The notes under the pieces are model-generated. The model worked only from the letters and a program-made list of their open reading frames with translations. It searched no databases and was not told the origin of the DNA. Shown here piece by piece: positions 1-15,975 of a stretch of DNA of 16,368 bases; position 1 is the first letter of the stretch; each line of letters opens with the position of its first letter. The translations under genes and the position numbers were made by a program. This stretch comes from Candidatus Zixiibacteriota bacterium (lineage in GTDB: Bacteria > Zixibacteria > MSB-5A5 > WJJR01), in assembly GCA_036170655.1 (NCBI GenBank), contig JAVHPP010000046.1, positions 1 through 16,368 of the forward strand, written 5' to 3'.

Positions 1-545
1 ATGGCGAAGGTCACCCCGGTGGCTACAACAACAATCACCGAAGGATAGACCAGCGCGCCTCGGACTTTGCGCACGAGGGCATCGGCTTTTTCACGGTAGT
101 TGGCCAGACGCACCAGGATGGTATCGAGCGCGCCCCCGACTTCGCCGGCTTCGACCATATTGACGAACAAGTCGTCGAAGATCTTCTTGTGTTTGCCCAA
201 CCCTTCGGCCAGGGTGGAGCCAGAGGAGACAGATTCCTTGACTTGGGTGATGACACGGCGCATCTGTACCGATTCCATCTGCTTTGACAGAATGTCCAGA
301 CACTGGACCATGGGCAGTCCCGCGCCGATCATCGTCGCAAACTGACGCGTGAAACGGGAGATCTCGATTTTTGGAACTCCGGTCCCCAGATGAAACTTCA
401 ACTGCGACGGTTTCTTGGCGACGTTTGCGACCAGGATTTTCTTCCGGCGCAACAGACGTTCCAGCTCGGTGCGGCTCTTCGCGCGCAACTCACCGGCGAC
501 GGCCATCCCGGCCATGGTCTTTCCCTTGTATTCAAAGAGCGGCAC
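1..545 (-). CDS. pilC: Type IV pilus inner-membrane platform protein PilC (T2SS F family), N-terminal part; runs off the window edge
   Basis: Not in the ORF track because it has no stop in the window. Manual translation from GTG at 545 (SD GGAGG at 551-555, 1 nt after the pilT stop) gives MPLFEYKGKT...ISRFTRQFATMIGAGLPMVQCLDILSKQ...GSTLAEGLGKHKKIFDDLFVNMVEAGEVGGALDTILVRLANYREK...VRGALVYPSVIVVVA, typical of PilC/GspF. Confidence 0.95.
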   Translation of the reverse strand, partial: MPLFEYKGKTMAGMAVAGELRAKSRTELERLLRRKKILVANVAKKPSQLKFHLGTGVPKIEISRFTRQFATMIGAGLPMVQCLDILSKQMESVQMRRVITQVKESVSSGSTLAEGLGKHKKIFDDLFVNMVEAGEVGGALDTILVRLANYREKADALVRKVRGALVYPSVIVVVATGVTFA

Positions 546-546
546 G

Positions 547-1647
547 TCAACCTCCTGCACTGGCATGCTCGCGGGCGCCCGCGAGCACCTGATTTCTCTG
601 GATCATTTCGTTGAGTTCCTGCGGATTGGAAGAGCGGCCAACGGCATCGCCCATCGTGATCTTCCGCGTCAAATACAATTCGGCGAGGGATTGGTTCATC
701 GTCCGCATACCGAACTTCTGTCCCGCCTGGATGAGACTGTATATCTGATGGACCTTGTCGTCGCGGATGACGGCCCGGATCGCCGGTGTGCAGATCATCA
801 CTTCCATTGCCAGGACACGTCCGCCCCCAATCCGCGGAATCAGTTGCTGTGAAACAACCGCCTGGATCACAAAGGACAAAGTGACACGGATCTGCTCCTG
901 TTGATTGACCGGGAACACATCGATGATGCGATTGATCGATTCGGCGCAGGAGTTCGTGTGCAGTGTGGCAAAGGCGAGATGGCCGGTCTCGGAAATCCGC
1001 AGGGCGGCATCGACCGTCTCCAAATCGCGCATTTCACCGATCAGCACCACATCCGGGTCTTCGCGCAGGGCGTATTTCAGCGCCGAGGCGAACGACGGCG
1101 TATCCGAGTAGACTTCACGCTGGTTGACCAGCGAGAACTGATGCCGATGGAGATATTCGATCGGATCCTCAACGGTAATGATGTGACAATAAAGCTCGCG
1201 GTTGATCTTGTCGATCAGGGCCGCCAGCGTGGTCGTTTTCCCCGAACCCGTGGGACCCGTCACCAGGACGAGACCGCGCGGGAGGTTGGCGAGTTCGCTG
1301 ACAACACGCGGCACGCCCAGTTCCTCGAACGAGCTGATCTTGTACGGGATCTGGCGGATGGCTACGGCGACGTTGCCGCGTTGCATAAAGACATTGCAAC
1401 GGAACCGGCTCAGGGATTCGATACCAAACGAGAGATCGAGTTCCCAATTCTCTTCGAATTTCTTGCGCTGCTTTTCATTCATCACGCTGTAGGCGAGCTT
1501 CTTGGTCTGCTCCCCAGTCAGCGGTTCCATGTCGGTGCGCGTGAGGTGCCCATCAACCCGCAACTGGGGCGGGGACCCCACAGTCAGGTGGAGATCCGAC
1601 GCCTTGCGTTGATACATCAACTCGAGCAATTCTCGTAAGGTCACCAT
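547..1647 (-). CDS. pilT: Type IV pilus retraction ATPase PilT (366 aa)
   Basis: ASDLHLTVGSPP, Walker A GPTGSGKTT, TVEDPIEY, LREDPDVVLIGEMRD, TLHTNS, and an AIRNLIRE-like AIRAVIRD. Start placed at ATG 1647 (MVTLRELL); the 1884 start overlaps pilB and adds an implausible N-terminus. Confidence 0.96.
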   Translation of the reverse strand: MVTLRELLELMYQRKASDLHLTVGSPPQLRVDGHLTRTDMEPLTGEQTKKLAYSVMNEKQRKKFEENWELDLSFGIESLSRFRCNVFMQRGNVAVAIRQIPYKISSFEELGVPRVVSELANLPRGLVLVTGPTGSGKTTTLAALIDKINRELYCHIITVEDPIEYLHRHQFSLVNQREVYSDTPSFASALKYALREDPDVVLIGEMRDLETVDAALRISETGHLAFATLHTNSCAESINRIIDVFPVNQQEQIRVTLSFVIQAVVSQQLIPRIGGGRVLAMEVMICTPAIRAVIRDDKVHQIYSLIQAGQKFGMRTMNQSLAELYLTRKITMGDAVGRSSNPQELNEMIQRNQVLAGAREHASAGG

Positions 1648-1711
1648 GGGTGTCTTTTTCGCCTCTTGAACAGAACCTGCCGGACCAAATGATGCGCCGC
1701 CCTCTACTTGA

Positions 1712-1739
1712 TTATCGGACGCTAAGCGGCGCTGCTTGA
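1712..1739 (-). promoter_or_regulatory. Putative sigma-28-like promoter upstream of pilT (TCAA-N16-TCCGATAA)
   Basis: Minus strand reads TCAAGCAGCGCCGCTTAGCGTCCGATAA in the pilB-pilT gap; same geometry as the motifs at 7342-7369 and 9160-9187. Confidence 0.6.
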
Positions 1740-1750
1740 TGGAATCCGGA

Positions 1751-3442
1751 TCAGGTGGATTCGGCCAGAACCTGGTCGATTGGGATCTGCCCCAGTGACA
1801 TCTTCTCGATGGCCGCCTGCCGCAACGACTGCATCCCCTCGCTAACCGCCTGCTGGCGGAGTTCGTCAACAGACGCAGAGGCAAGAATCATGCGTTCGAT
1901 TGCCGGAGAGATCGGCATCACTTCGAAGATGCCCGTACGCCCGGAGAGCCCCGTGTGATTGCACTCGGGACATCCCGTGCCTTCAAAAATGTGCAGGTTC
2001 CCGGCGTCTTCCCGTGTCATCTGGAGCTTGGCCAGGTGCTCATCGCTCACCTCGATTTCGCGGCGGCAGTGAGCGCAGATCTTTCGCGTCATACGCTGTG
2101 CCATGATCAGTTTGGCTCCCGACGCAACCAGGTATGGGGGGATTCCCATATCGATCAGGCGGTTGACCGACGACGGCGCATCGTTGGTGTGCAACGTGGA
2201 GAAAACGAGGTGCCCGGTCAAAGCCGCGCGAATGGCGATTTCCGCCGTCTCCCCGTCACGAATCTCACCCACCATGATAATGTCCGGGTCCTGGCGCAAG
2301 AATGAACGCAGCGACGCTGCAAAGGTCAGTCCGATGTCAGTGCGGACCAGCACTTGATTGATCCCTTCGAAGTTGAACTCCACGGGATCTTCTGCGGTCA
2401 GGATATTGACTTCAGGGTCGTTGAGCGTCTTGAGGGCCGAGTAGAGCGTGGTGGTCTTTCCCGATCCTGTCGGTCCAGTCACGAGGATCATACCGTAGGG
2501 CAGGTTGATTGCCCGCTGAAAATTGTCGAGGGCCAGTTCGGGGAATCCCAGCTGGGTCAGATCCGCCATGAGCGATTGCGGATCGAGAATTCGCATAACC
2601 ACTTTTTCACCGAAGATCGTCGGGAGAACAGACACGCGAAGATCGACGGCACGATTGCCGAATTTGACTTTAATGCGGCCGTCCTGCGGCAGCCGCCGCT
2701 CCGAAATATCCAGGTCGGCCATGATCTTGACGCGCGAGACGATCGCGGCCCGGTACTTGAACGGCAGCGGTTCGGTCTCCTTCAAGACGCCGTCGATCCG
2801 GTAGCGGACGCGGATGCGTTTCTCGTAGGATTCGATGTGAATATCCGACGCGCCACGGCGGATGGCTTCGAGGATGATACCGTCCACAAGTTTAACCAGC
2901 GGCTTGTCCTGCACTTGCGAACGCAAGTCATTCTCGTTGACCGTTTCCTCGGTTTCAATGACCTCGAGTCCGCTTTCATCCTCCAATCCCTTGAGCAGAT
3001 CGCCGATGCCGCCGGTGTCCTTGTAGCACTGGTCGATCGTCCGCGCGATCGCCCGTTCGGGAGAGATGACCGGCTGGATGGTGCAGCCGGTAATGAATTT
3101 CAACGCGTCGAGGACATAGATGTTGTGGGGATCACTGATGGCCACAACCAGTGTTTTGTTCAGCTTGGAGATGGCGATGACATTGAAACGCCGGGCGATA
3201 TCCAACGGGATGAGCCTGACGATCTCGGGGTTGAGTTCGACGTCCGAGAGTCTCAGCGCCCCAATGTTGAGCTGACGGCCAATAAAGTGGGTGAGTTCGT
3301 CCTCATCGGCAACGGCCCCCATCCGCACGAGAATGTCGACAAACTTCTCATTGGTGGCTTTCTGCTTCTCGAGGGCCTGGGCCAGTTGATCAGCACTGAT
3401 CTTCCCTGCCTTGACCAGCATATGGCCGAGTTCTTGCGACAT
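1751..3442 (-). CDS. pilB: Type IV pilus extension ATPase PilB (563 aa)
   Basis: N-terminal GSPII_N/MshEN-like region, ASDIHIE, LDISERRLPQDGR, Walker A GPTGSGKTT, TAEDPVE, LRQDPDIIMVGEIRD, TLHTND, Zn-binding CAHC...CPEC. Confidence 0.96.
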   Translation of the reverse strand: MSQELGHMLVKAGKISADQLAQALEKQKATNEKFVDILVRMGAVADEDELTHFIGRQLNIGALRLSDVELNPEIVRLIPLDIARRFNVIAISKLNKTLVVAISDPHNIYVLDALKFITGCTIQPVISPERAIARTIDQCYKDTGGIGDLLKGLEDESGLEVIETEETVNENDLRSQVQDKPLVKLVDGIILEAIRRGASDIHIESYEKRIRVRYRIDGVLKETEPLPFKYRAAIVSRVKIMADLDISERRLPQDGRIKVKFGNRAVDLRVSVLPTIFGEKVVMRILDPQSLMADLTQLGFPELALDNFQRAINLPYGMILVTGPTGSGKTTTLYSALKTLNDPEVNILTAEDPVEFNFEGINQVLVRTDIGLTFAASLRSFLRQDPDIIMVGEIRDGETAEIAIRAALTGHLVFSTLHTNDAPSSVNRLIDMGIPPYLVASGAKLIMAQRMTRKICAHCRREIEVSDEHLAKLQMTREDAGNLHIFEGTGCPECNHTGLSGRTGIFEVMPISPAIERMILASASVDELRQQAVSEGMQSLRQAAIEKMSLGQIPIDQVLAEST

Positions 3443-3518
3443 GGCGTTTCTTCAGATGCGGGGCACACCGCCCACGGGATGGGAAAACCGGACGACCGGA
3501 GAGTTCCCGAAAAGCGAT

Positions 3519-3998
3519 CTACTCCTTGAATACATCGTCGATTTTTGACCCGGCGCTGCGGGCAAACTCCGGATCAATGGCTGGTTCTTCCTTGTTGTCA
3601 GATTCCGTCAGAATCTCCTTGAGGCGATCACCCGTCTCCTTGGCAAACAAGCGCACCATCCCAATCGTCGTGCGATCATCAAAGAGGACGGCGAGAATGC
3701 AGCGCTCCCCGACCAGCGAGACGTGGATGTGATCTTTCTTCCCCTGATGGAACAGCACGGAAAATTCCGGCTCACCAACCAGCCGGGCGATTTCTTTGGT
3801 CGAAGCGAAGCTTCCGGCCAGCAGCGCCGCCAGCGCGGTGGTGTCCAGGGTCTGCGTGAATCCCTGCCGTGTGATGAGATGGCCGTCCTTGTCCACCAGC
3901 AGCGCGCACTTGGCTTCCGCCTTTTTGATCATGCGCAACAGGGCGGCATTGATCTGGTTAACCTGTTCCTCGTAGACAACGAACGAATGTGACGACAT
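3519..3998 (-). CDS. mglB: MglB, roadblock/LC7-domain GTPase-activating protein of MglA (159 aa)
   Basis: LLVDKDGHLI, LDTTALAALLAGSFAST, GEPEFSVLFHQG, LAVLFDDRTTIGMVRL and C-terminal KIDDVFKE resemble Myxococcus MglB. Strong SD (GGAGGT) directly after the mglA stop. Confidence 0.92.
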   Translation of the reverse strand: MSSHSFVVYEEQVNQINAALLRMIKKAEAKCALLVDKDGHLITRQGFTQTLDTTALAALLAGSFASTKEIARLVGEPEFSVLFHQGKKDHIHVSLVGERCILAVLFDDRTTIGMVRLFAKETGDRLKEILTESDNKEEPAIDPEFARSAGSKIDDVFKE

Positions 3999-4009
3999 GA
4001 GTCACCTCC

Positions 4010-4954
4010 CTAACGGCCAGTCAACCACCCGAACAGGCGGTCCCAGAATGATCGTTGACGACTCCTGATCCGTCGGCTGGGCTGCCGTGCAAAGACAACG
4101 TCGCGCGGAATCGGAGTGGCACGATGTGCAATTCCTGTCTGTGTAATTTTGTTGCTGCTGATCAGCGCGTCGGCGCCCTGCCCAGAGGGCGGGGGCGGCT
4201 CTTCGACCGCAACGGCACTGCGGTTTGCCTGCGTCCATGATCCGCCGTTGGGTACTGTGGCAACGGTCTGCGCATACACCGGCTCGGCCCTCTGAGACGA
4301 GACATCCACCCGTTCGGGCATCGGAGCCGACGCGGCACCGATCTGGGGAACGCCATCGGGGGAAACCGCCGTTTCACGCTTCGTGTGTTCCAATACCAGC
4401 TTCGTGATCCGTTTGAGAGTGTCAAACACACCGGTCCCGTTGACTGCCGAGGCTTCGGTGCAGACCCAGCCTTCGGGATTCAACGCCTTCTGCAGTTCAT
4501 CAATGGAACAGATGTCGGGCAGATCTCTTTTGTTGTATTGAATGACGACCGGAATTTCAGAGAGATCGATGCCGTTTTCCCGCAGGTTCTCGTACATGTT
4601 GGTCAGCGATTCGATGTTTTCATCCATCTTTGCCTTCTGCGAGTCGGCGACAAAGACAATCCCGTCCACGCCTCGGAGCACGAGTTTGCGTGTGGCGTTG
4701 TAGAAGACTTGTCCCGGGACGGTGTACAATTGGAACTTGGTGGCGAACCCGGCGATATCTCCCACGTGGATCGGCAGGAAGTCGAAATACAAGGTCCGGT
4801 CGGCCTCGGTCGCCAGGCTGATCAGATCACCCCGCGATTTCGAGGGGATTCGGTCATGGACGTACTGAAGGTTGGTCGTCTTGCCCGACAACCCGGGACC
4901 GTAGTACACGATCTTGCAGCTAATCTCGCGAAATGCGTAGTTGATCGTTACCAT
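4010..4954 (-). CDS. mglA: MglA-family small Ras-like GTPase with C-terminal extension (314 aa)
   Basis: INYAFREISCKIVYYGPGLSGKTTNL (G1), TEADRTLYFDFLP (switch I with intrinsic Arg), TVPGQVFY (G3, catalytic Gln), QYNKRD (G4). Start placed at ATG 4954 (MVTINY). Confidence 0.95.
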   Translation of the reverse strand: MVTINYAFREISCKIVYYGPGLSGKTTNLQYVHDRIPSKSRGDLISLATEADRTLYFDFLPIHVGDIAGFATKFQLYTVPGQVFYNATRKLVLRGVDGIVFVADSQKAKMDENIESLTNMYENLRENGIDLSEIPVVIQYNKRDLPDICSIDELQKALNPEGWVCTEASAVNGTGVFDTLKRITKLVLEHTKRETAVSPDGVPQIGAASAPMPERVDVSSQRAEPVYAQTVATVPNGGSWTQANRSAVAVEEPPPPSGQGADALISSNKITQTGIAHRATPIPRDVVFARQPSRRIRSRQRSFWDRLFGWLTGR

Positions 4955-4996
4955 TCGTCGCCTTTGCCCTGCGGGCACAGCCCGCCGCACGGTCCG

Positions 4997-5335
4997 TCAG
5001 ATGTTGCGCAGCTCGTTGATTGCGTTTCGGATTTCGAGTCGCACGAGGCCGATATTGACACGAGAGTCGGTGGTCACCACCAGTGTTCCGATGCCGGCAT
5101 CGGCCAGGAACATTTTCCGGTTGTCTGCCTCCACGGTGATTTGAGAGAAATCACCACTGCCCATGTTGTCAAGTGACCGGCGGACGGTCGCCACAATGGA
5201 TGAGGCCAGCGCCCCGACGGTGTCATCTTCGACCTGACTGTTGAGATCGGCGGCGATCACGATGCCGTCGGCGCCGACAACCATGCTGCCGGTCACACCG
5301 TTGGTCTTGTTCAACTGCGTGAGAACGTCATACAT
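4997..5335 (-). CDS. Stand-alone roadblock/LC7 domain protein (MglB/MglC-like paralogue, 112 aa)
   Basis: GVTGSMVVGADGIVIAA...VGALASSI...LVVTTDSRVNIGLVRLEI. ATG at 5335 with SD GGAGG at 5342-5346, overlapping the upstream stop (ATGTATGA). Confidence 0.88.
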   Translation of the reverse strand: MYDVLTQLNKTNGVTGSMVVGADGIVIAADLNSQVEDDTVGALASSIVATVRRSLDNMGSGDFSQITVEADNRKMFLADAGIGTLVVTTDSRVNIGLVRLEIRNAINELRNI

Positions 5336-6275
5336 ATCGAGCCTCCTGCAGTCCCGTGGACTGGACACAGCGTTCTTGAAGATGCTTCAGAATCATGTCA
5401 CGTGATTGCGACAGCCGCAGACCGATCAAATCGTCGGCGTCCCGGTTGGTCAAGACACCAAGCCAGAGTTCTCCAACCGCCTCCAGGATAATCCGGCCGG
5501 CATCGGTACGAACTTCGACGCGCTGGGGGGTGACTTCCCCCGCCGCGGAGAGACATCGGCGATTGAATTCAACGATCTCAATCGAAATTGGCGCCCAGAA
5601 ATCGACACTGCCGGTGTATTCCTGTCGCTGCCACACCGCCAGTGGCAACCCTTCGGCATCGACCAGCCAGGAAATCCGCACACCGTCATAAGCGCCAACG
5701 TACGCGAGAGCGTTGTCGAACGTCAGGTGCGAACGGTGCAACAAAGATCGCGTGTCTGTCCCCGACCCGAAGGATTTCGACAGATCTCCTCCGGCCATTC
5801 TGGGAACATGAACCGGATGGGAGGGACGAAACCCTGCGATCCGCGGCCGCGGAAGATCAGCGCCCCAAAGGCTCTTCAGCAGAACACGGATGACAAATGG
5901 CGCGGCCGCCACCTGCAGGATCAGCAATGGTGGGAACGACCACAGGGCAAATTTCACAGACGAAACCCACGACAAATCGTGGCCGGCCGCCAGGAGAGAA
6001 CCGGAGGCGACACCGCACAGATAACGATAGGCCAAGGTGAATACGGCCGCCGCCATACGTTTGGAGACGGTCAGCCACGAAGCAAGCGGGATCAGCAAAA
6101 CGAAGTACAAAGCGCATTCGATCAGAACCATCACGGGCCGATAGCGGAACGGCATCAAGCCGGCAGCGCCGGGGTAAAACAGCAACGGGATGACGGCCAA
6201 GGCCCCCGTCCAGAGAATCATCTGCCGGATGGTGACGGAGGAACTGGTCGATCCATGTCTGTCAGCGAGAGGCAT
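5328..6275 (-). CDS. Membrane protein: about 4 N-terminal TM helices plus C-terminal roadblock/LC7-like domain (315 aa)
   Basis: Hydrophobic segments in aa ~19-135, then a Pro/Gly linker. aa ~184-300 (GVRISWLVDAEGLPLA...VEVRTDAGRIILE...LWLGVLTNRDADDLIGLRL) follow the roadblock pattern. SD AAGGGA. Confidence 0.75.
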   Translation of the reverse strand: MPLADRHGSTSSSVTIRQMILWTGALAVIPLLFYPGAAGLMPFRYRPVMVLIECALYFVLLIPLASWLTVSKRMAAAVFTLAYRYLCGVASGSLLAAGHDLSWVSSVKFALWSFPPLLILQVAAAPFVIRVLLKSLWGADLPRPRIAGFRPSHPVHVPRMAGGDLSKSFGSGTDTRSLLHRSHLTFDNALAYVGAYDGVRISWLVDAEGLPLAVWQRQEYTGSVDFWAPISIEIVEFNRRCLSAAGEVTPQRVEVRTDAGRIILEAVGELWLGVLTNRDADDLIGLRLSQSRDMILKHLQERCVQSTGLQEARYV

Positions 6276-6313
6276 TGCGTATCCCTTTCCACATCTCGGT
6301 CGGTTGCCGGCCG

Positions 6314-7258
6314 TTAGACATCCATCGGCAAATCAGCCGGCGCTGTACCGTCGTCGTGGGTCGCTTGCATTCCCTTCGACGGCGACGTGACTTCGCCGTA
6401 CGAAGGAGGAGAATTCACACGTTTCGCCATATCGACGCCACGCTGGCGTATGGCCCCGAACGACATTAGACGAAGGCCAACCAAGCCAAAGGCCAAGTCG
6501 CCGTTCTTCCTCGCCCATATCTCGGAGCTGGCTGTTTCAATGTGAACTTCCTGGAGAGGACTCCATGCGTGGTGGCACAAGAGCTCATCAATGACCTGCG
6601 CCAGTGAACGAACAGAGCCTGCCCGACCCTCTGTCTCTGCGGATCGTGGGTGGACCGACACAAGCTGATCAACCCGGTCGTACACAAAAGCCGCCTCGAC
6701 GCCGCGCAAATTCCCGATCGCGCTGGCCCACTCTTCCCAACCGATCGGATCAGGCGTGTTGCGCATCTCCGGGGCGGGATGGTGTTCCCCGTCGGAGTCG
6801 GTTGCCGGCGAGGGCAGTACACCTTGGCCCGGTTTGGCCGCGCCCAATTGCTTCACCTGCTCCACCAGTTCGGCGAGTCCCGGGTTCCCCGGATCGGAGA
6901 TCCTCAGCCGATCGATTACGGCCTGGGCGGCTTTGCTGTCTCCAGTGGCGATCTGGATCTCTGCTTCCAACAGATCAGTCGTGCGTGTCTGTCCATCCAG
7001 CTCGATGGCACGACGTAACGCACCCAATGCGTCTCCGAGCATTCGCTGATACAAGTAGAGTTTTGCCAGAACGACGTGCGCTGGCGCGTAGTCAGGATGG
7101 TGCTTCAGGCCGCTTTTGCACACCGAAAAGGCCCGCCCGAATTCACCCCGACGACGGTATGCTTCGGCAAGCGCCGCAAACACCTGCGAATGAGGATTGT
7201 CGGCCAGGATGGCCAGACACCGGTCGATTCGCTCGTCAAGCTCGGCAACGTTAATCAT
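6314..7258 (-). CDS. TPR-repeat protein with probable C-terminal divergent roadblock domain (314 aa)
   Basis: TPR-like helices (FAALAEAYRRRGEFGRA...HPDYAPAHVVLAKLY...ALRRAIELD), a Pro-rich linker, then GVEAAFVYD...LQEVHIET...LAFGLVG...FGAIR. Start placed at ATG 7258 (SD AAGG); TTG at 7288 is an alternative. Confidence 0.75.
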   Translation of the reverse strand: MINVAELDERIDRCLAILADNPHSQVFAALAEAYRRRGEFGRAFSVCKSGLKHHPDYAPAHVVLAKLYLYQRMLGDALGALRRAIELDGQTRTTDLLEAEIQIATGDSKAAQAVIDRLRISDPGNPGLAELVEQVKQLGAAKPGQGVLPSPATDSDGEHHPAPEMRNTPDPIGWEEWASAIGNLRGVEAAFVYDRVDQLVSVHPRSAETEGRAGSVRSLAQVIDELLCHHAWSPLQEVHIETASSEIWARKNGDLAFGLVGLRLMSFGAIRQRGVDMAKRVNSPPSYGEVTSPSKGMQATHDDGTAPADLPMDV

Positions 7259-7341: not shown

Positions 7342-7369
7342 ATATCGACGCCACACCGGGGTAACTTTA
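7342..7369 (-). promoter_or_regulatory. Putative sigma-28-like promoter upstream of the TPR/roadblock-mglA-mglB-pilB operon (TAAA-N16-GTCGATAT)
   Basis: Minus strand reads TAAAGTTACCCCGGTGTGGCGTCGATAT, resembling FliA TAAAGTTT / GCCGATAA. Confidence 0.6.
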
Positions 7370-7540: not shown

Positions 7541-7930
7541 TTAGACTAACAGCTTTCGGATGCGACCGACACCGAGCAGCACAAAGACCAAGGCGACAAC
7601 TCGGAGGGCGTCAACCCAAGTGACCGAGATTGGCGCCACCCCCATCTGGGAGGTCACCAAGAGCAACTGCGCGAAACCGAGCAGTCCGAAGCCGCTCACA
7701 AGCCAGAACCAGCCACGGGCGATTTTCCCCCCGCGCATGGCTACATAAATCTTAAGAGCCGTATAGAGACAGGCGATGACGACCAGCAGCAGGAGCACGC
7801 CGATGAGCACAGACCCAATAGGAATTCCCAACGTGTCGGCCCCAGCCACATGCACGTCGGACGGCCGCACCGCTGACTGTACCCCCAGTGCGATGGCGCT
7901 GTTCGCGCTGATCACGCCATCCCATTTCAT
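7541..7930 (-). CDS. Small hypothetical membrane protein (about 3 TM helices, 129 aa)
   Basis: Three hydrophobic stretches; starts 4 nt after the stop of the DUF4388 gene, so probably co-transcribed. Confidence 0.7.
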   Translation of the reverse strand: MKWDGVISANSAIALGVQSAVRPSDVHVAGADTLGIPIGSVLIGVLLLLVVIACLYTALKIYVAMRGGKIARGWFWLVSGFGLLGFAQLLLVTSQMGVAPISVTWVDALRVVALVFVLLGVGRIRKLLV

Positions 7931-7934
7931 TGTC

Positions 7935-9104
7935 TCACACCCCCCGTAAGGCCTGCCGAATATCCCTGCCTATATCATATTTGTCGGCCAGCGACCGCTT
8001 TTGGGCAAGCAAGAAGGACAGGTCTTTTTGGATACCACTCGTGACGCGACCGGCAATTCCTGGCCCCAGCCAGTCTGCCGTCAGACGCACCCTGTCCGCA
8101 AGAATCTGATTGGCGGACGACAGCGCCCGGTGCAAACGTACCGGATCGGGAATTCCGGACATCTCTTTCTGCAACGAATCAACCGGACCGCCCGGCGTGA
8201 TCAGGACATCGAACAACCGGGACCGATCGCTCTCCCATCCCTCTGGCGCCCGGCAAAACAATCGCTCACCCGAAGGTCCAAGGTACTCGACCAATACCTT
8301 ATGCACGGCTTGAAGAGCGTGAGTGTAAAGACGGTAGATCAACTCGTACACCATCTCTTCCTCGCCCTTTCGGCTGGCACGTTCAGCCGCATCAGGACAG
8401 GGCTCAACCAGAGAAGATTTCAGGAGCTTGTGCAGAGACTTCGAGGCCGAATACTCACCATGAGCGGCCGATGAGATGATGTCGGAGACGCTCCGTTCAC
8501 CGTTCACGGCGACTAGCACATCAATGTCTTCTCCGGTGAGAACGATATTGGGTTCTTCCATGCGTGGGGAGGGACTCAAGCGGAGGACAGTCGCCGCGTC
8601 GGGAAGGGAATGGGCGACCTCTGCATATTCGTCGAATCGGCGGGCGCCCTCCATCATCACGTTCAAGGTGTTGAGTTCCACGAGAATCTGACCGGGGTCT
8701 GGCGCCTCCCCATCCAGAAAGCGGAACTCCGCTTCCGGCCAGGCAAAGACACTATAGACAACCTCCTCCACTTGGGCGCGCAGCGAGTCAAGAATGATGG
8801 CCCGGTCAAGGATACCCATTTCGATCAGGACATGTCCGAGCCGCTTGCCGGAGGATCGCTGCTTCTTGAGCGCCTTGTCCAAATCGTCTGCAGTGATCTG
8901 TCCCCGGCGCAGAAGAACCTGCCCAAGCCGTTCTTCGATCGTCGAGGGCTGCGCGGCGGCGGTCACGATGTTTCCGCCACGGAAATAAATCTTCTTCGCG
9001 GCATTTGCACGGAGCAATTGCAAGACACCGGTCTTCTTCCCGGTCGAGATAAGCTGGAGGATATCTCCAAAGGAGACAGTCTTGAGATTTCCGGTGAACC
9101 CCAT
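7935..9104 (-). CDS. DUF4388 (PATAN-like) domain protein with inserted tandem MshEN motif (389 aa)
   Basis: GFTGNLKTVSFGDILQLISTGKKTGVLQL...IYFRGGNIV...VFAWPEAEFRF...LNVMMEGARRFDE is DUF4388-like. The insert is RLGQVLLRRGQITADDLDKALKKQ-RSSGK-RLGHVLIEMGILDRAIILDSLRAQ. Start placed at ATG 9104 (SD GAGGG). Confidence 0.85.
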   Translation of the reverse strand: MGFTGNLKTVSFGDILQLISTGKKTGVLQLLRANAAKKIYFRGGNIVTAAAQPSTIEERLGQVLLRRGQITADDLDKALKKQRSSGKRLGHVLIEMGILDRAIILDSLRAQVEEVVYSVFAWPEAEFRFLDGEAPDPGQILVELNTLNVMMEGARRFDEYAEVAHSLPDAATVLRLSPSPRMEEPNIVLTGEDIDVLVAVNGERSVSDIISSAAHGEYSASKSLHKLLKSSLVEPCPDAAERASRKGEEEMVYELIYRLYTHALQAVHKVLVEYLGPSGERLFCRAPEGWESDRSRLFDVLITPGGPVDSLQKEMSGIPDPVRLHRALSSANQILADRVRLTADWLGPGIAGRVTSGIQKDLSFLLAQKRSLADKYDIGRDIRQALRGV

Positions 9105-9159: not shown

Positions 9160-9187
9160 TTATCGGGGTCAAGAGAATCGGGCTTTA
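9160..9187 (-). promoter_or_regulatory. Putative sigma-28-like promoter upstream of the DUF4388 gene (TAAA-N16-CCCGATAA)
   Basis: Minus strand reads TAAAGCCCGATTCTCTTGACCCCGATAA in the comEC-DUF4388 gap. Confidence 0.62.
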
Positions 9188-9201: not shown

Positions 9202-11514
9202 TCAGGGGGCGGGATCTCTGACAGTTGGCACGATTGTTGTGGATGACGGTCTCCATTCGATCATAACACCGCCATTGAGGGTCGTCGACCAGAATTGAAC
9301 CGATGGGAACTGCGCCCGCCACCGTTCCAGCCACTGCTCCTCGTGTCCCGGCTGTGCATATCCACCAAACAAGATCACGCGTTCGGGAGCCAGCCGCGCA
9401 AGCAGCGTCGCGCCCAAGCGAGACGGCAGGCCGCCGGGGAGCACAATCGTGCGCGCCGAAGCCATCGCCTGTGTCAGCCACTCGGCGCCGGGGGGTGAAG
9501 TCGGATAGTCTCGCAGACAGAAGATTGTGTCGCCATACCACGCGAACTGCTCGCCCCACACACGTGGCGGCTCTTTGGCATCGGTCGAATATGACACAAA
9601 CCGCTTCCAGGATGGAACTGAACTCTCGTGATGCAGCAATATCACATCCGTGGTTGACACACTTGACGAATCCAGCCAACGCCATGGACCAAGGCGGAAT
9701 GGGACATCACTGTAGCCAGATTGGGATCGGGCAAACGGGACCAAGATCCACTCCTGCAAACCCTCATCCAAATCCGGTGAATCGACCAGCCACAATCCCT
9801 GCTCTCGCTGGTGCATATAGGCCGCCACACGGGTAGCACCTGCGTCAAGGTAGGCAAGGGTGATGGGCGGGCGAGATTGTGAATGCAGACTCCAGATCGC
9901 CATAGCGGGAACAAGCGCAACCGAATACCAGGCTACGAGCCTCGCCCAACGATAACGGTGACGCCAGTTTAGCAGCAGGAACACAGCAAGATAGAAGTGG
10001 ATGATAGCGATCCAGGATGGATCAGGCCATGAAAGTCGCGCGCCGGGGAGTCTCGAAAAGAATCCAGCCGTGCCCGAGGTCAGCTCGACGACCCATTGCA
10101 CGGGAATGGCAACCCACCCCGCCAGCGGCCCGGGCACGAATGCAATCACCGCGAGTGTCAACCCACCGTATAATGATGCCGCCGCGAGCGGGATCATGCA
10201 GAGATTGGCGGGCACGGACCATGCCGGCACAGTCCCGAAATGACGCGCGACGATCGGGACAGTCACCAGTGTGGCTGCGGTCGATGTCGCCAGAACGAGT
10301 AACGGGACACGGAGCCATCCGCGTTTCGGCAGCCACTCCCACCTCTGTGCCCGCTGCGTCACCAGCGTGATGCCGATGACCGCCACATAAGAAAGCTGGA
10401 ATCCCGGGCGAAACAGTTGCGACGGTGACACCAGCAGGATGGTCAGGGCAGAAACACCCACCGCGTTGAGAAATTGTACAGGCCGAAACAAGAGACGTCC
10501 AATCAACATGGTTGAAATCATGAGCGAAGCGCGCACCACCGACGGTTCGTTCCGTGTCAGAAAGCTGAACGCAATGACGATCAGTATCAGCACGACCGTC
10601 CGCGGCCATCGCGGTACGCGCATGATCCGCAAGGGCCAGAGCAAGAGCCCGACGACCAGCCAGACATTGGCACCGGAGACGGCAAGCAGATGCATTGTCC
10701 CCGAGTCACGGAAAGCGTTGACAATGCTCTGCGGCAATTGATCGGTGTCGCCCAAGAAAAAACCGAGAATGAGCCCACCGGCCGGTCTGGGAAGGGCGCC
10801 GGCAATGGCGGCACGAATCCACCGGCGAACCGGCTCGACATACCGGTCCAGTGACCAACGCGATCCCGCGTCGGAGAGAGATCTGATGTGTCCTGACGGT
10901 CGCAGGAGTCCATCAATTCCCTGACGGTAGAGATGAGCGGCGTAATCGAAGCCACCGGGATTTCTTTGCACGAAGGGAATCACAATGCGGGCGGGGAACT
11001 GAAGGAGATCCCCAGAGTGGAATTCGCCGGTGCTGAGACGTGTCGTCAGTAGCAGGCGTGCCGTCACCGGAATGTGCCCCCGCTCTGTGCGGATGGCCTC
11101 GAGATCAAAGGGAGCCCGCCATCCGGCTGCCCTCTGCTCCGGCGATCCGGCCAGATGTCCCACGACATCTACCGTTTTGCCCGACTGCATGAGTGTCGCC
11201 AACGCCGGTGAAGGACGGTTGCTATTCTCCAACGTGATCCGCCATGCTCCCAACGCGATGAGCAGGAGACCGGCGAACAACACGGGCCATGCCGTACGGT
11301 CAGCCAGCGATTTCAGCATCACGACGGCTATGATTCCGGTGACGGTGAAAATCGCCCAAGTCGCAATGGGCCAGGCGCCCCAGTCGCCAACCACAATACC
11401 CACTGCGAGAAGGACTGAAGCGAACAGGGCCGGGTGGCGTTGTCCGGCGATGCACACCCAAGACTTTGCGGGATTCTGTCTCTGACTCCCGACGGTCGCG
11501 GTCCAAGTATCCAT
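9202..11514 (-). CDS. comEC: ComEC/Rec2 DNA-uptake channel (DUF4131 OB domain, Competence domain, degenerate MBL-like domain)
   Basis: RNPGGFDYAAHL, FRDSGTMHLLAVSGANV, PSVVRASLM, PGFQLSY and many TM helices. No clear SD, so the exact start is uncertain. Confidence 0.93.
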   Translation of the reverse strand: MDTWTATVGSQRQNPAKSWVCIAGQRHPALFASVLLAVGIVVGDWGAWPIATWAIFTVTGIIAVVMLKSLADRTAWPVLFAGLLLIALGAWRITLENSNRPSPALATLMQSGKTVDVVGHLAGSPEQRAAGWRAPFDLEAIRTERGHIPVTARLLLTTRLSTGEFHSGDLLQFPARIVIPFVQRNPGGFDYAAHLYRQGIDGLLRPSGHIRSLSDAGSRWSLDRYVEPVRRWIRAAIAGALPRPAGGLILGFFLGDTDQLPQSIVNAFRDSGTMHLLAVSGANVWLVVGLLLWPLRIMRVPRWPRTVVLILIVIAFSFLTRNEPSVVRASLMISTMLIGRLLFRPVQFLNAVGVSALTILLVSPSQLFRPGFQLSYVAVIGITLVTQRAQRWEWLPKRGWLRVPLLVLATSTAATLVTVPIVARHFGTVPAWSVPANLCMIPLAAASLYGGLTLAVIAFVPGPLAGWVAIPVQWVVELTSGTAGFFSRLPGARLSWPDPSWIAIIHFYLAVFLLLNWRHRYRWARLVAWYSVALVPAMAIWSLHSQSRPPITLAYLDAGATRVAAYMHQREQGLWLVDSPDLDEGLQEWILVPFARSQSGYSDVPFRLGPWRWLDSSSVSTTDVILLHHESSVPSWKRFVSYSTDAKEPPRVWGEQFAWYGDTIFCLRDYPTSPPGAEWLTQAMASARTIVLPGGLPSRLGATLLARLAPERVILFGGYAQPGHEEQWLERWRAQFPSVQFWSTTLNGGVMIEWRPSSTTIVPTVRDPAP

Positions 11515-11641: not shown

Positions 11642-12370
11642 CTATTGAGCAATGGCAAACCGTACGCGCACTTGAGCCACCGTGGTCACCACCGGCGATT
11701 TGAGATCAATGGCCTTTTGACGGACAAGTATGTCCTCATTGGGTGCTGATGCGTTCAAGGGTAGCGCTGACGGAAGAGGCGACCATGGGGCTGGCTGGGG
11801 CGGCGGGGTCGTTTCTTCGCATCCCGTCAGGGCGCCAAGCTTGACACCACCCTCTGCGGCCAACGCCTCCGCTTTGAATCGGGCATCGGCCAGGGCGCGC
11901 TTCAAAGCGCTCTCATATTCAGTCTGCGGGTCGCTCACTTCAAACCGAAACCGGACCGAAGCGGCATCCAACATTGTGGCCCGGTCCATCATGTCGATCG
12001 CCGCAGAAAAATCATTGAGACGCACCACCAGCGTCGTCGCGGCCAAGAAGATGGTCTTCTTTGGTTCCTCCGGCAGCGGACGACGGTAGGCCTGCTGGCT
12101 GCGGACCCAATCGTCGGGCTTGATGCCAAAACGGCGAAAGTCCGCGATGAGTCCCTCGGTCTTGCCGACGGTGCGTGCCCGAGCATCTTCGGCGGTCGAC
12201 CCCGAACCGAGCACGGTCATCTCGAGCACGAGAATCGTGGCCGGTGTGTTCAAGACCACCGTACCGGTGGTCACAATTTCGTGCTCCGGATTCTGTGCCC
12301 ATGCCGCACTCACCAAACCAAGCACGAGAAGGACTGACATAACAAAACGGAAAGATCGGAATACGCTCAT
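11642..12370 (-). CDS. SIMPL (DUF541/BP26/YggE-like) exported protein (242 aa)
   Basis: Signal peptide (LGLVSAAWA), IVTTGTVVL, ALKRALADARFKAEALAAEGGVKLGAL, C-terminal VRVRFAI. ATG at 12370 overlaps the murJ stop (ATGA). Confidence 0.85.
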   Translation of the reverse strand: MSVFRSFRFVMSVLLVLGLVSAAWAQNPEHEIVTTGTVVLNTPATILVLEMTVLGSGSTAEDARARTVGKTEGLIADFRRFGIKPDDWVRSQQAYRRPLPEEPKKTIFLAATTLVVRLNDFSAAIDMMDRATMLDAASVRFRFEVSDPQTEYESALKRALADARFKAEALAAEGGVKLGALTGCEETTPPPQPAPWSPLPSALPLNASAPNEDILVRQKAIDLKSPVVTTVAQVRVRFAIAQ

Positions 12371-13974
12371 TGGTCCCCCCTGTTTTTCTGGTGGCCACGG
12401 AAGTTCAGAAACGCAGGCCATTCACTCTTCATCCTTACACCGCCAAGCTGGCGATATCCCAATAGCCAAGTTATCCCGAGATAGAGAAATCCAGCAACCA
12501 AAATCGCCAGCGCAACGCCCCCCACACGCCACCAGCCAGAGGTCATGTGCCCCATGGAATTCCAGACCACCCATCCCAGTCCAATCGAACCAACAGAAAC
12601 ACATGCCACCAGACCGAAGTGGCGGATCAGACGAGTCAGACCGAGCGGGCCGTAGCGCCGCTGGGCGATGATCCAGAGCGCCGCCACTTGGACCCACGCC
12701 GCGCACGACACCGAGAGCGCCAGCCCGCCATACCCCATGGGGCGCACGAGCAGTGACATGCCGATCAGATTGAACACGACGGCGAGGATGCCACACATGG
12801 CGGGTGTCCTGGTGTCGTGGTGTGCATAGAACAGGGGCGTGGTCACACGGATGGCCCCCATCGCCGGCAGGCCGGCGGCATAGAACATCAACGCACGTGC
12901 GGTGTGGGCGCTGGCAACAGCATCGAAACGACCGCGTTGGAACAACGCCGCACAGAGCGGCTCTCCCAGAATGATGAACATGACTGCGGTCGGGATCACG
13001 AAGTAGCTGACAGTCTGAAGCGCTTGCGCAAATGTTCGCTGTACCTGTTGTGTTTCTCCTGCGGCCACGAGTTGCGACAGACGCGGCAGCCCCACTGTGG
13101 CGGCGGCGACGGCGAACACACCCAGCGGCAGGAAGATCACGAGGTAGGCATAATTGAGGTAGGCCACCGGGCCATCGCCGAGCGACCAGGCAAAACGGGT
13201 GATTGAGAAAATGTTAATCTGCACAGCCGCTGTGCCCACCAGCGAAGGCAGAATCAGCGCAGCAATATGGCGGACATTGGGGTCACGCCATCCCAAAGCG
13301 GGGGCATGGCGGAATCCGAGACGGTGAAGTGAGACGGCTTGGAATGCCCATTGCAGGATGCCCCCGAGGACTACTCCCCAAGCCAACCCAATGATCTTCG
13401 GGTCGGTCCAGAATGACAGGAGGGTGGCACCAATGATGACACCGACGTTGAACCCGGCCGGGGCCAGCGCGGGGATTCCAAATCTTCCCAGCGAATTCAG
13501 CGCTCCCATCATGACTGAGGCAACTGACACCAAGAGCAGGAAGGGAAACATCCACCGGGCCATCCGGATCAGAAGCTCAATCTTGCCCGGCGAGGACTCC
13601 ACGCCGCCGGACATTAAAGACGCGATCTGCGGCGTGAAGAGAATCCCCAGTCCACATACGACCAGCAGCACGGGGACAAAGACGCCGAGAACCCGATTGA
13701 GCAACTCAAAGGCAGCCCGCTTTCCATCTTTTTCGAGGACGCGTGAGAACGTGGGGACAAAGGCGGCGGAGAAGGCCCCCTCGGCAAACAAGTCTCTGAG
13801 CAGGTTGGGGATACGAAAGGCGGCGACATAAGCATCCGTCATGGCGCCAGCCCCGAAATAGTAGGCGATGACCTGCTCTCGCATCAGGCCAACCACACGG
13901 GAGAGCATGGTGGCGATCACCACCGTGCGCGTCTGACGGGCGAATCGGGCGGTAGCGGGAGCCTCTTTTGTCAT
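12367..13974 (-). CDS. murJ: Lipid II flippase MurJ (MviN)
   Basis: TMLSRVVGLMRE, DAYVAAFRIPNLLRDLFAEGAFSAAFVP, LPLGVFAVA, LFQRGRFD, FYAHHDTRTP; polytopic membrane protein. Confidence 0.96.
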   Translation of the reverse strand: MTKEAPATARFARQTRTVVIATMLSRVVGLMREQVIAYYFGAGAMTDAYVAAFRIPNLLRDLFAEGAFSAAFVPTFSRVLEKDGKRAAFELLNRVLGVFVPVLLVVCGLGILFTPQIASLMSGGVESSPGKIELLIRMARWMFPFLLLVSVASVMMGALNSLGRFGIPALAPAGFNVGVIIGATLLSFWTDPKIIGLAWGVVLGGILQWAFQAVSLHRLGFRHAPALGWRDPNVRHIAALILPSLVGTAAVQINIFSITRFAWSLGDGPVAYLNYAYLVIFLPLGVFAVAAATVGLPRLSQLVAAGETQQVQRTFAQALQTVSYFVIPTAVMFIILGEPLCAALFQRGRFDAVASAHTARALMFYAAGLPAMGAIRVTTPLFYAHHDTRTPAMCGILAVVFNLIGMSLLVRPMGYGGLALSVSCAAWVQVAALWIIAQRRYGPLGLTRLIRHFGLVACVSVGSIGLGWVVWNSMGHMTSGWWRVGGVALAILVAGFLYLGITWLLGYRQLGGVRMKSEWPAFLNFRGHQKNRGDQ

Positions 13975-14002
13975 TGCACGTTTTCGGGGTATCTGCTATA
14001 AT
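13974..14002 (+). promoter_or_regulatory. Sigma-70 promoter for rpsT (TTGCAC-N17-TATAAT with extended -10 TG)
   Basis: TTGCAC at 13974-13979, 17-nt spacer ending in TGC, perfect TATAAT at 13997-14002. Confidence 0.8.
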
Positions 14003-14012
14003 TGGATGTTGT

Positions 14013-14041
14013 AGGATAACCCCGGCTTGGACCGGGGCCAA
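14013..14041 (-). promoter_or_regulatory. Possible sigma-70 promoter for murJ (TTGGCC-N17-TATCCT)
   Basis: Minus-strand TTGGCC (14041-14036) and TATCCT (14018-14013) with a 17-nt spacer; each box matches consensus at 4/6. Confidence 0.4.
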
Positions 14042-14077
14042 TGGTTTTTGATCTGAGAACGAAGAGAGGGAATCACC

Positions 14078-14344
14078 GTGGCTGAACACTTATCTGTCAA
14101 GAAGCGTAACCGCCAGAGCATCGCGCACAACCGCCGCAACCGCGCGGCCAAATCGAAGATTCGGACCACCACGAAGCTGTTTGACAGCGCCGAACCAGCC
14201 AACAAAGAAACCAGCTACCGCACGTTGTCGTCTCTCTTGGACCGTGCCGCCACCAAGCGGGTCATTCACCCCAACAAGGCCGCACGGACCAAGTCGCGTC
14301 TGGCAAAACGGATGAAAAAGGTAACGGTGACCACTCAAGGATAG
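14078..14344 (+). CDS. rpsT: 30S ribosomal protein S20
   Basis: MAEHLSVKKRNRQS...RNRAAKSKIRT...LDRAATKRVIHPNKAARTKSRL; GTG start with SD GAGGG. Confidence 0.97.
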   Translation: MAEHLSVKKRNRQSIAHNRRNRAAKSKIRTTTKLFDSAEPANKETSYRTLSSLLDRAATKRVIHPNKAARTKSRLAKRMKKVTVTTQG

Positions 14345-14388
14345 GTTGCAACAGTCGGGCCTCAGCCCATCGGGTGGACAGGTTTACA

Positions 14389-14422
14389 GGAGTGTCGCTG
14401 GTATGGCGGCGCTCCTTTTTTT
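14389..14422 (+). terminator. Rho-independent terminator of rpsT
   Basis: 10-bp stem GGAGTGTCGC / GCGGCGCTCC (two G-U pairs), 7-nt loop, followed by T7. Confidence 0.85.
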
Positions 14423-14473
14423 GTCCTGAAACGCGACGGGTGGGACGCGGCGCCAGTGAACGAATATCCTGGC

Positions 14474-15667
14474 CTACCAAACCAAATGCCGTGCCAGGCG
14501 TAGCAGCGACGGGCGGTGGCGCAGGGCGGTCTTGATGACATCGATGGGATCGATGGCGGTAACCGTCTGGCCGTTGTAGATCGTGGCCAGAAATCCAATG
14601 ACATCATCATATTCGGTGTTGGACATACGCAGCATGATGTTGCGCGTCCAAAGAAAGTAACGCATCTGGCGACCGCGCGCCGCCATCCACCGGGATGGGT
14701 ACTGGCGCAGAATGGTGAGGTCGCGGTGGCCGTCACGCAGGCAGGCGACAGCCGCTTCGGCGGCGAGGCGGCCCGACCAGAGGGCGTTGGCGATACCGGC
14801 GCCGGTCACCGAGTCGACCAGACGGGCCGCATCGCCCGTCACCATGACGTTGCCCCTGAGCATGAGCTTGCGTCCGCAAAACTCCGGAATTCCTCCCACG
14901 CTGCGCCGCAGCGGCTTGGGACCGGGTCCCTTGAAACGAAACTGGATAAACTCACCCAGCATGGTCATCGCCTTGCGGCCATGAGCAACGGCGGGCGCGA
15001 GCGCCAGCCCGACATTGGCAGCGCCGTTTCCCTTGGGGAAGACCCACGCGTATCCCCCGGGGGCGAAACGATCATCGAAGTAGAACTCCATCCGCGACGG
15101 GTCAAGTTCGGGGACATCCCCTAATAGGAATTGCGCCGCAGAGTCGACGCGATTGAGCGGCAACACCGTGTCCAGTCCCGCCCACCGAGCCACCATGGAT
15201 TCGATACCGTCGGCGGCAATGATGATGTCGCAGCCGACGTCATAAGTCGTGCCGTTTTCGCGCAGACGAATTCCCGCAAAGCGTTCGCTGTCATTGGGAA
15301 TCAGGCCGACCGCCTCTGTGCTTGTGCGCACCTGTGCGCCATATCCAGCCGCCATGTCGGCCAACCCCTGCTCAAAACGGCGGCGGGAGAGGACAAAACC
15401 GGCGTCTGGATGGTGCAATTCGAGTTCCATCCCACCGGGCGAACGCAGATAGCAGCGTTCGATCCCGGCCGCGACCCAGTCACGGTTGAGTTCGATGTTA
15501 TCAGTCAGACCACAGAGGGAAATCCCTTCTGCGCAGCAGAGCGGTTCGCCAATAACTGCATGTTTCTCGATCAGCAGCGTCCGGCAACCCGCACGCGCCG
15601 CGGTCAGAGCCGCCAACCCACCAGCCGGGCCTGCTCCGACGACGACAATGTCAAACTCCTGGTCCAT
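14474..15667 (-). CDS. Geranylgeranyl reductase-family FAD oxidoreductase (DGGGPL reductase-like, 397 aa)
   Basis: DIVVVGAGPAG, PLCCAEGIS, IIAADGIESMVAR, APGGYAWVFPKG (PxxYxWxFP), GDAARLVDSVTGAGIANA. Confidence 0.88.
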   Translation of the reverse strand: MDQEFDIVVVGAGPAGGLAALTAARAGCRTLLIEKHAVIGEPLCCAEGISLCGLTDNIELNRDWVAAGIERCYLRSPGGMELELHHPDAGFVLSRRRFEQGLADMAAGYGAQVRTSTEAVGLIPNDSERFAGIRLRENGTTYDVGCDIIIAADGIESMVARWAGLDTVLPLNRVDSAAQFLLGDVPELDPSRMEFYFDDRFAPGGYAWVFPKGNGAANVGLALAPAVAHGRKAMTMLGEFIQFRFKGPGPKPLRRSVGGIPEFCGRKLMLRGNVMVTGDAARLVDSVTGAGIANALWSGRLAAEAAVACLRDGHRDLTILRQYPSRWMAARGRQMRYFLWTRNIMLRMSNTEYDDVIGFLATIYNGQTVTAIDPIDVIKTALRHRPSLLRLARHLVW

Positions 15668-15713
15668 TGTTCATGCCGGAAACTGAATTCGTCCGATGCG
15701 GACCAGGTCAGGA

Positions 15714-15917
15714 TCACCCAATCGACAAGGCGCTGGTCGGACAGGCAATGACACACACATCACAGAGCACGCATTCATCGTGGAGAATCTCAAGAACGGT
15801 GGGGCGGAGTACCAGGGCATCATAGGGACAGACCGCGACACAGAGCCCACATTCGGCGCACGCTTTGACATCCAATGTCAACTTTGTCTCGCGCACGGTT
15901 GCACCCGAACCGGTCAT
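15714..15917 (-). CDS. 2x[4Fe-4S] ferredoxin
   Basis: CAECGLCVAVCP and CVLCDVCVIACP; directly upstream of the reductase. The start could instead be GTG at 15896. Confidence 0.9.
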   Translation of the reverse strand: MTGSGATVRETKLTLDVKACAECGLCVAVCPYDALVLRPTVLEILHDECVLCDVCVIACPTSALSIG

Positions 15918-15975
15918 AGGAAATGTCGATCAAGATGTTTGAGGGGTATTTAAGCGAATAAAGAGCACGTGACGG

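Follow-up and report, generated by a model that had tools for sequence, protein, structure and literature searches.

A conserved MglA/MglB module with four roadblock domains and sigma-28-type promoter-like elements beside the pilus motor genes of a Zixibacteria bacterium

We analysed a stretch of 16,368 nucleotides (hereafter the window) that forms the start of contig C46 (JAVHPP010000046.1) in the genome of a Candidatus Zixiibacteriota bacterium (GCA_036170655.1; 2.6 Mb, scored as 100% complete). The window carries a module built around MglA, a small GTPase, and the partner protein MglB, located between comEC and the type IV pilus motor gene pilB (Table 1). The original prediction, made from the sequence alone, had described eight open reading frames (ORFs) on the minus strand, from a gene combining TPR and roadblock domains to pilC, and the ORF coordinates bear out both their order and their spacing (gaps of 38, -8, 42, 11, 76, 103 and 1 nt). 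The order mglA-mglB was also correctly read, the Myxococcus locus having mglB first. The end of the contig cuts pilC, whose 3' part lies on contig C55, followed by a gene for a PilS-like PAS-histidine kinase; this kinase gene also follows pilC in 9 of the 10 relatives that were read further downstream. A single copy of mglA was found in the genome, in the window, and all three matches of the whole genome to the roadblock profile PF03259 fall inside the window as well.

Table 1. Features of the window from comEC to pilC, with the basis of each assignment.
Feature	Coordinates	Strand	Basis
comEC, DNA-uptake channel	9202..11514	-	Pfam Competence and DUF4131
P1, sigma-28 (FliA)-type promoter-like element TAAAG-N16-CCGATA, intergenic	9161..9187	-	published consensus, <=2 mismatches
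PATAN/DUF4388 protein, 389 aa, with inserted MshEN-type tandem motif (residues 59-111) and C-terminal helical region	7935..9104	-	Pfam DUF4388
Small membrane protein (129 aa) with roughly three hydrophobic segments	7541..7930	-	hydrophobic ORF position
P2, sigma-28-type promoter-like element TAAAG-N16-TCGATA, intergenic	7343..7369	-	consensus match
TPR-roadblock protein (314 aa), with a conserved TPR region at the N-terminus and a fast-evolving roadblock at the C-terminus, joined by a variable linker	6314..7258	-	profiles, fold
Membrane roadblock protein (315 aa), in which a disordered linker joins hydrophobic helices at the N-terminus to a roadblock at the C-terminus	5328..6275	-	profiles, fold, hydropathy
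RB1, stand-alone roadblock, 112 aa, 8-nt overlap with preceding gene	4997..5335	-	PF03259, 54.8 bits
MglA (314 aa); residues 1-194 form the G domain, followed by a low-complexity linker and a tail	4010..4954	-	M. xanthus MglA match
MglA basic-aromatic C-terminal tail, candidate membrane-binding helix	4013..4084	-	composition filter
MglB, 159 aa, with Myxococcus-type C-terminal helix	3519..3998	-	M. xanthus MglB match
PilB extension ATPase, N-terminal MshEN motif without both arginines	1751..3442	-	TIGR02538 above cut-off
P3, sigma-28-type promoter-like element TCAAG-N16-CCGATA, intergenic	1713..1739	-	consensus match
PilT retraction ATPase	547..1647	-	TIGR01420 above cut-off
pilC, 5' part	1..545	-	Pfam T2SSF

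We then compared the locus with 56 loci of relatives, mglA being found in 57 of 61 genomes. These relatives are kin and not independent samples. The cluster is conserved phylum-wide: the order from the DUF4388 gene to pilC is kept in 49 of the 56 relatives, the misses corresponding to five contig ends and to two loci of one family in which the cluster is broken after pilB. Similarly, comEC lies directly upstream in 49 of 56 relatives and the mglA module adjoins pilB in 53 of 56 loci. The conserved unit nevertheless begins two genes further upstream (7541-9104) than the region 1-7258 to which it had been confined, as the genes for the PATAN/DUF4388 protein and the small membrane protein, which had gone unreported, belong to the module. 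A hydrophobic ORF occupies the position of the latter in 55 of 56 loci, and the protein has no match in Pfam or NCBIfam and no useful match in Atlas. In one family, both loci examined read comEC-pilB-pilT-pilC-kinase, all seven genes between comEC and pilB being gone. Since these seven genes were lost together, they form one unit.

The two central proteins are close to those of Myxococcus. MglA matches M. xanthus MglA (6hjh) with an E-value of 5e-76, and MglB matches M. xanthus MglB (6izw) over its full length with an E-value of 1.6e-35. We mapped residue positions on the proteins of Myxococcus sp. CA023, with the catalytic and allosteric residues as named in PMC6785124. R53, T54, D58 and Q82 of MglA are kept in all 57 homologues, as are the G1 and G4 motifs, while K181 is kept in 56 of 57 and K185 in 55 of 57. 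For MglB, which has the acidic C-terminal helix that fits K181 and K185 of MglA, the D154 position is D or E in 50 of 56 homologues, F157 is found in 55 of 56 and R115 is kept. By their sequences, MglA and MglB are thus members of the Myxococcus-type families (group 1 for MglA), and by analogy we infer that MglB accelerates MglA's hydrolysis of GTP. Because the cluster is conserved, the roadblock assignments hold (see below) and both proteins keep the catalytic residues of Myxococcus, a GTPase switch that controls pili is the best reading of the locus. To this extent the pilus polarity switch of the original prediction stands, but not as a self-contained operon within 1-7258.

MglA exceeds its G domain by about 120 residues and is therefore not the usual single-domain protein of about 195 aa. 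A linker rich in A, P, E and S, of 80-430 residues, followed by a tail, was found in 56 homologues. With a filter on basic residues, aromatic residues and hydrophobic moment, whose thresholds were fixed after the tails had been inspected, the MglA tail passes in 39 of 56 homologues, compared with 34 of 1228 ORFs of the genome, 0-1 for the other genes of the cluster and 7 of 32 for MurJ. In Planctomycetota, MglA ends in a hydrophobic (transmembrane) helix in 6 of 7 loci. A Fibrobacterota MglA of 292 aa (L042:10001 onward), encoded between DUF4388 and mglB genes, has a basic-aromatic tail resembling that of Zixibacteria. Furthermore, Gemmatimonadota-type loci (L028, L035, L038 and L066) present the order DUF4388, TPR-roadblock, roadblock, mglB, mglA, DUF4388; no pil genes were detected within these loci, which appear as a related soluble module.

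The presence of four roadblock domains, including the fused C-terminal ones (5328-6275 and 6314-7258), had been proposed in the original prediction. MglB and RB1 exceed the cut-off of Pfam PF03259. Taken alone, the domain of the membrane roadblock protein reaches 18.2 bits, below the cut-off of 23, and that of the TPR-roadblock protein has no PF03259 match in the Pfam search. At the level of families, PF03259 is matched at E<=0.1 by 43 of the 70 homologues of one fused domain and by 48 of the 67 of the other. The fused domains match the RB1 profile with probabilities of 99.3 and 97.4, and their own profiles match solved roadblock structures. Their AlphaFold models (mean pLDDT of 95.6 and 87.3) both contain a five-strand sheet between helices and resemble MglB, Asgard roadblocks and LAMTOR2 about equally (TM-scores of about 0.7-0.85 to MglB and Asgard roadblocks). 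All four roadblock domains are real, judged by profile or by predicted fold, the fused ones modelling as roadblocks in agreement with their family profiles. Across the phylum, the domain of the membrane roadblock was detected in 149 genomes out of 151. In a tree of 77 rows subsampled from alignments (125 columns, deep forks unresolved), RB1 groups with roadblocks adjoining mglA of Planctomycetota (support 95/90). Two adjacent genes with weak roadblock matches (E-values of 0.003 and 0.018) were also seen in Geobacter hydrogenophilus (L193:722-2133); one of them begins PATAN-like, a name given by likeness alone.

Such a set of four roadblock folds within one locus could point to fixed heterodimers on a membrane anchor, forming a platform that recruits and activates MglA as Ragulator (LAMTOR1-5) does with Rag GTPases, another case where several roadblock folds, a possible membrane anchor and a small GTPase are found together; an analogy of this kind has already been published for MglB and MglC (PMC10329633, PMC13408092). 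The membrane roadblock and RB1 genes overlap by a median of 8 nt across 55 loci, which suits coupled translation, and the fused domains diverge fast, as obligate partners can (mean column identity of 31% and 37% vs. 69% for RB1). We nevertheless consider such a platform quite unlikely. The membrane roadblock is a soluble protein of 133-171 aa, without membrane segment, in 5 of 55 loci belonging to two families, and the anchor consists here of hydrophobic helices fused to the roadblock itself. Rag GTPases form heterodimers and each bear a roadblock domain of their own (PMC10329633), whereas the MglA described here has no roadblock domain and has its own tail. Moreover, LAMTOR2 is no better match for the fused domains than Asgard, MglB or dynein roadblocks. 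What remains of the likeness to Ragulator suggested in the original prediction is the shared roadblock fold, with no specific kinship to LAMTOR proteins beyond it. The YV conserved at the C-terminus of the membrane roadblock was set aside, being accounted for by the overlap with the RB1 start.

We also compared the extra roadblocks with MglC, the additional roadblock protein of Myxococcus. The RB1 profile gives an E-value of 1.1 against MglC (7ct3); the profiles of the three extra roadblocks score 6-12 bits against MglC, and none of the three groups with the two MglC rows of the tree, within the limits of its deep forks. At the sequence level, the three extra roadblocks do not appear to be MglC orthologues. 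MglC has an F25-D26-I28 patch that binds a K14/R115/K120 patch on MglB. Of the MglC patch, whose residues have been linked to an orphan roadblock clade by McLoon et al. (PMC4719450), RB1 keeps the D and the G in 62 of 62 sequences and the I in 61 of 62, the F not being kept. The D-G pair occurs in MglB of Zixibacteria as well.

A bipartite motif was first spotted as conserved upstream of the TPR-roadblock gene. We scanned up to 220 nt upstream of genes with the consensus of Bdellovibrio FliA, TTAAG-N16-CCGATA (PMC3627812), allowing two mismatches at most. Element P1, before the DUF4388 gene, was found in 38 of 53 loci with a spacer of 16 nt (1.8 expected) and in 39 of 53 with spacers of 15-17 nt (4.4 in shuffled sequences). 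With these same spacers, P2, before the TPR-roadblock gene, was found in 24 of 57 loci (1.6 expected, or 3.6 in shuffles over the three spacers) and P3, before pilT, in 38 of 51 (4.2 in shuffles). P2 lies about 87-103 nt before the start codon, a distance that is fixed in the family of the window. The other eight genes display 0-5 elements, near background (1 of 48 for comEC and 4 of 54 for pilB), and at least one of the three elements is present in 52 of 57 loci. In the window, all three are intergenic with a spacer of 16 nt. Flagellin, flgN and csrA of the genome likewise have this element upstream (3 out of 3 tested). Outside the phylum, 3 of 7 Planctomycetota loci have the element (0.6 expected); in 30 deltaproteobacteria-like and other loci it stays at the background level (4 vs. 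4.1 expected), and it was not seen in the single Eisenbacteria locus. Scans for sigma-70 promoters and for terminators remained at background (4 vs. 3.3 and 14 vs. 10.5, respectively). The elements are consensus-like, intergenic and conserved, and the cognate sigma factor is present, features that argue for putative sigma-28 (FliA) promoters. Describing the genes as co-operonic was too simple, given three promoter-like elements inside the run and one family in which the cluster breaks between pilB and pilT; a FliA-controlled pilus-activation module with nested promoters is the probable organization.

Several candidate signals were discarded. A sigma-54-like site before the TPR-roadblock gene is present at that position in the window only. 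A first weight matrix, derived from only four flagellin sites (two of them nearly identical) out of 16 regions, was replaced by the published consensus, and a strict genome-wide pattern written after the sites had been seen (22 matches vs. 6-19 in shuffles) was not used as evidence. Reverse-strand matches before mglA (17 of 57) lie mostly inside the RB1 coding region and probably reflect a codon effect. Elsewhere, a second pilT paralogue (G000:C163 near 13454, minus strand; L151:4322-5494) has a two-mismatch sigma-28-type element 106 nt upstream. Three such elements were also seen within 2.7 kb at G000:C47 (minus strand, 13565-16211), one of them preceding a 179-aa protein with a signal-peptide-like start.

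We then examined FliA itself. It scores above cut-off in 60 of 61 genomes, compared with 38 genomes for flagellin and 40 for FlhA, and it is present in each of the 21 genomes that have neither of these. All 17 flagellum-less genomes whose module locus was examined carry at least one element. In flagellated members, fliA sits within the gene cluster of flhA. A FlgM was detected in 3 of the 61 genomes, this family being probably too divergent to judge. In four flagellum-less loci (L176, L177, L178 and L179), fliA stays with remnants, and DUF2225 and PilZ genes then follow in L176; FliW- and CsrA-like ORFs, named by sequence likeness alone, occur near fliA in some flagellum-less genomes. The best flagellin ORFs of relatives measure about 725-770 aa.

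These data raise the question of whether the linkage between the module and the pil genes could be regulatory only, the module setting cell or flagellar polarity and adjoining pilB since both belong to the FliA regulon. The promoter type is indeed common to flagellin, flgN and csrA, the pil genes persist without the module, and the family without the module is also without flagella. Yet the module is intact in 17 genomes without FlhA or flagellin and its adjacency to pilB is kept in all but 3 of 56 loci. Furthermore, pilB has no element of its own beyond background and therefore depends on the promoter of the module. We thus regard a purely regulatory linkage as very unlikely. The P3-type element before pilT is retained in the family without the module.

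The PATAN protein exceeds the cut-off of the NCBIfam c-di-GMP motif (57.2 bits vs. 38). In the window and in the members of its family, it presents two RLG...Q motifs of 24 residues each, separated by 5 residues, following the tandem MshEN motif definition of PMC5013675. The first arginine of this motif is kept in the 14 family members with sequence (14/14) and in 3 of 41 other relatives. In PilB, position 1 of the MshEN motif is E or D in all 49 matched homologues (five were unmatched) and K in both loci without the module. Three GGDEF matches were found in the genome. This contrast, which rests on one genus, suggests that sensing of c-di-GMP may have been handed over from PilB to the module. 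Atlas searches with the C-terminus of the PATAN protein yielded no usable family. Two other genes join an N-terminal MshEN to a C-terminal DUF4388: one at G000:C49 (L148:6536-8326, minus strand), with two weak sigma-28-type matches upstream, and one at G000:C170 (L149:2126-4177, plus strand), which comes after a third pilT-like gene.

Our preferred reading, to which we give a probability of about 0.55, is that the seven-gene MglA/MglB module between comEC and pilB is transcribed together with the motor genes from three FliA promoters and activates type IVa pili at one membrane site, which is probably a pole. When cells are motile or seek a surface, FliA would drive expression of the module together with pilB and pilT-pilC, through the motifs observed here. 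MglA would cycle GTP via its own R53 and Q82, and MglB dimers would, as in Myxococcus, speed hydrolysis through the conserved pocket for their C-terminal helix. The basic-aromatic tail, on its long linker, may hold MglA at the inner membrane and so replace recruitment by a polar scaffold. The three extra roadblocks, stacked on MglB, could position or gate its GTPase-activating (GAP) activity and so fill the role of MglC without being MglC proteins, and the membrane roadblock could fix the site. By analogy with SgmX, the TPR domain might relay the MglA-GTP signal to PilB; in Myxococcus and Bdellovibrio, MglA acts on pili through TPR proteins (PMC7668184, PMC7519303). Finally, in the order to which the window belongs, c-di-GMP would enter via the PATAN/MshEN protein rather than PilB.

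A bolder form of this reading is a tentative one that we find rather doubtful: a bacterial Ras-like GTPase that independently acquired a hypervariable linker and a membrane tail in the style of eukaryotes and that docks on different roadblocks stacked at a membrane anchor, in a switch that became the main remaining FliA target after repeated flagellar loss and that takes c-di-GMP sensing from PilB.

Several observations weigh against the preferred reading. The motor genes pilB-pilT-pilC persist in the family that lost the module, which is thus not required by the motor. The G68 position of MglB is E and the K120 position is E or D in 56 of 56 homologues, and the acidic patch D150-152 of Myxococcus is not kept. 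Hydrophobic moment alone (0.57) does not set the MglA tail apart from the genome (0.46) or from MglB (0.55). Against SgmX, a large protein made up of TPRs, the TPR region reaches 14.3 bits, while six unrelated TPR ORFs of the genome reach up to 25.7 bits; a tblastn search with SgmX against the genome gave nothing at 1e-5 either, and the 314-aa TPR-roadblock protein is not, on these comparisons, an SgmX orthologue. Concerning the promoters, all three elements are absent from 5 of 57 loci, pilM and pilQ have no element upstream in this genome, and over the whole genome the motif shows no enrichment (15 one-mismatch sites vs. 15-28 in shuffles). Lastly, the tandem motif of the PATAN protein is degenerate in 38 of the 41 other relatives, its intact form being limited to one order, and PilB still exceeds the cut-off of the NCBIfam c-di-GMP motif.

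The module might instead gate pili for DNA uptake, adhesion or prey contact, as an on/off licence for the motor and not as a front-rear switch. The frequent position of comEC directly upstream fits this, as does Bdellovibrio, in which MglA serves pilus formation and predation (PMC7519303). In addition, CheW has no match in this genome, so that there is no Frz-like reversal input. As CheW was found in 29 of 61 genomes, the module does not depend on chemosensory input, which also fits the preferred reading. However, comEC remains beside pilB after loss of the module, without a sigma-28-type element, and its link is therefore to the motor genes or to the position. The locus has also kept the GAP machinery typical of polarity switching, and we judge the gate to be unlikely. 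Flagellin, FlhA and FliA are present at G000:C64 and C72 with no CheW match, i.e. flagellar genes without a chemotaxis system.

Among known systems, the polarity module of Myxococcus (MglA, MglB, MglC, RomR/RomX and RomY, with the effector SgmX) is comparable through its close MglA and MglB homologues, its extra roadblock and TPR proteins and the shared order pilB-pilT-pilC-kinase. Here, in contrast, mglA-mglB precede pilB and stand in reversed order, MglA bears a linker and tail, three extra roadblocks are present (two of them fused), neither SgmX homologue nor CheW was found in the genome, and the promoters are of sigma-28 type. By analogy, the module may work like that of Myxococcus, MglA and MglB being the parts that sequence shows to be members of its families. 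The contrast drawn initially with Myxococcus, where mglBA was said to lie apart from the pil cluster, was right about mglB coming first but overstated. In Myxococcus sp. CA023, the order is pilB-pilT, then pilA, pilM and pilQ at intervals, then one gene, mglC, efp and, further on, a 1056-aa TPR protein that we take to be SgmX by its size and position (cf. PMC7668184). With mglC and sgmX co-directional just after pilQ, roadblock and TPR regulators are already linked to pil genes in the genus that serves as the model.

Group 1 MglA loci (Wuichet and Sogaard-Andersen, PMC4316618; McLoon et al., PMC4719450) also include PATAN genes near some mglA and mglA coupled to two mglB-like genes, but in the parts consulted these papers mention neither a locus with four roadblocks nor a membrane roadblock nor a linkage to pil genes. 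Sigma factors of the flagellar clade are likewise known on pilus genes, with the same consensus, for WhiG in Rubrobacter and Actinoplanes (PMC8325347) and FliA in the attack phase of Bdellovibrio (PMC3627812); the pil cluster of Rubrobacter contains three WhiG promoters (PMC8325347). The differences here are that the sigma gene sits in the flhA cluster of flagellated members and is kept after flagellar loss, and that its predicted targets include an MglA switch. In searches that did not cover subscription journals, we found no publication on MglA in Zixibacteria and none joining FliA/sigma 28 promoters, type IV pili and mglA; nor, mostly from titles and the beginnings of abstracts, any on such a cluster or on an MglA membrane tail. 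The parts are thus known, and the wiring of an MglA switch with three extra roadblocks, a pilus motor and sigma-28 promoters appears to be undescribed.

Further upstream in the window (11642-15667) lie SIMPL, murJ and geranylgeranyl-reductase-like genes and a short ORF that we assume to be rpsT-like. murJ often adjoins comEC in relatives too.

MglA polarity is understood almost solely from Myxococcus, where several links between MglA, scaffold and PilB remain open. In the phylum studied here the system is compact, all its candidate parts standing together at a single locus. It also offers natural deletions: one family is without the module, two are without the roadblock membrane anchor and one has pilT-pilC moved. 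These natural variants make roadblock pairing, membrane targeting of the GTPase and the link between MglA and PilB testable with purified proteins. Finally, the promoters suggest why a flagellar sigma factor outlives flagella.

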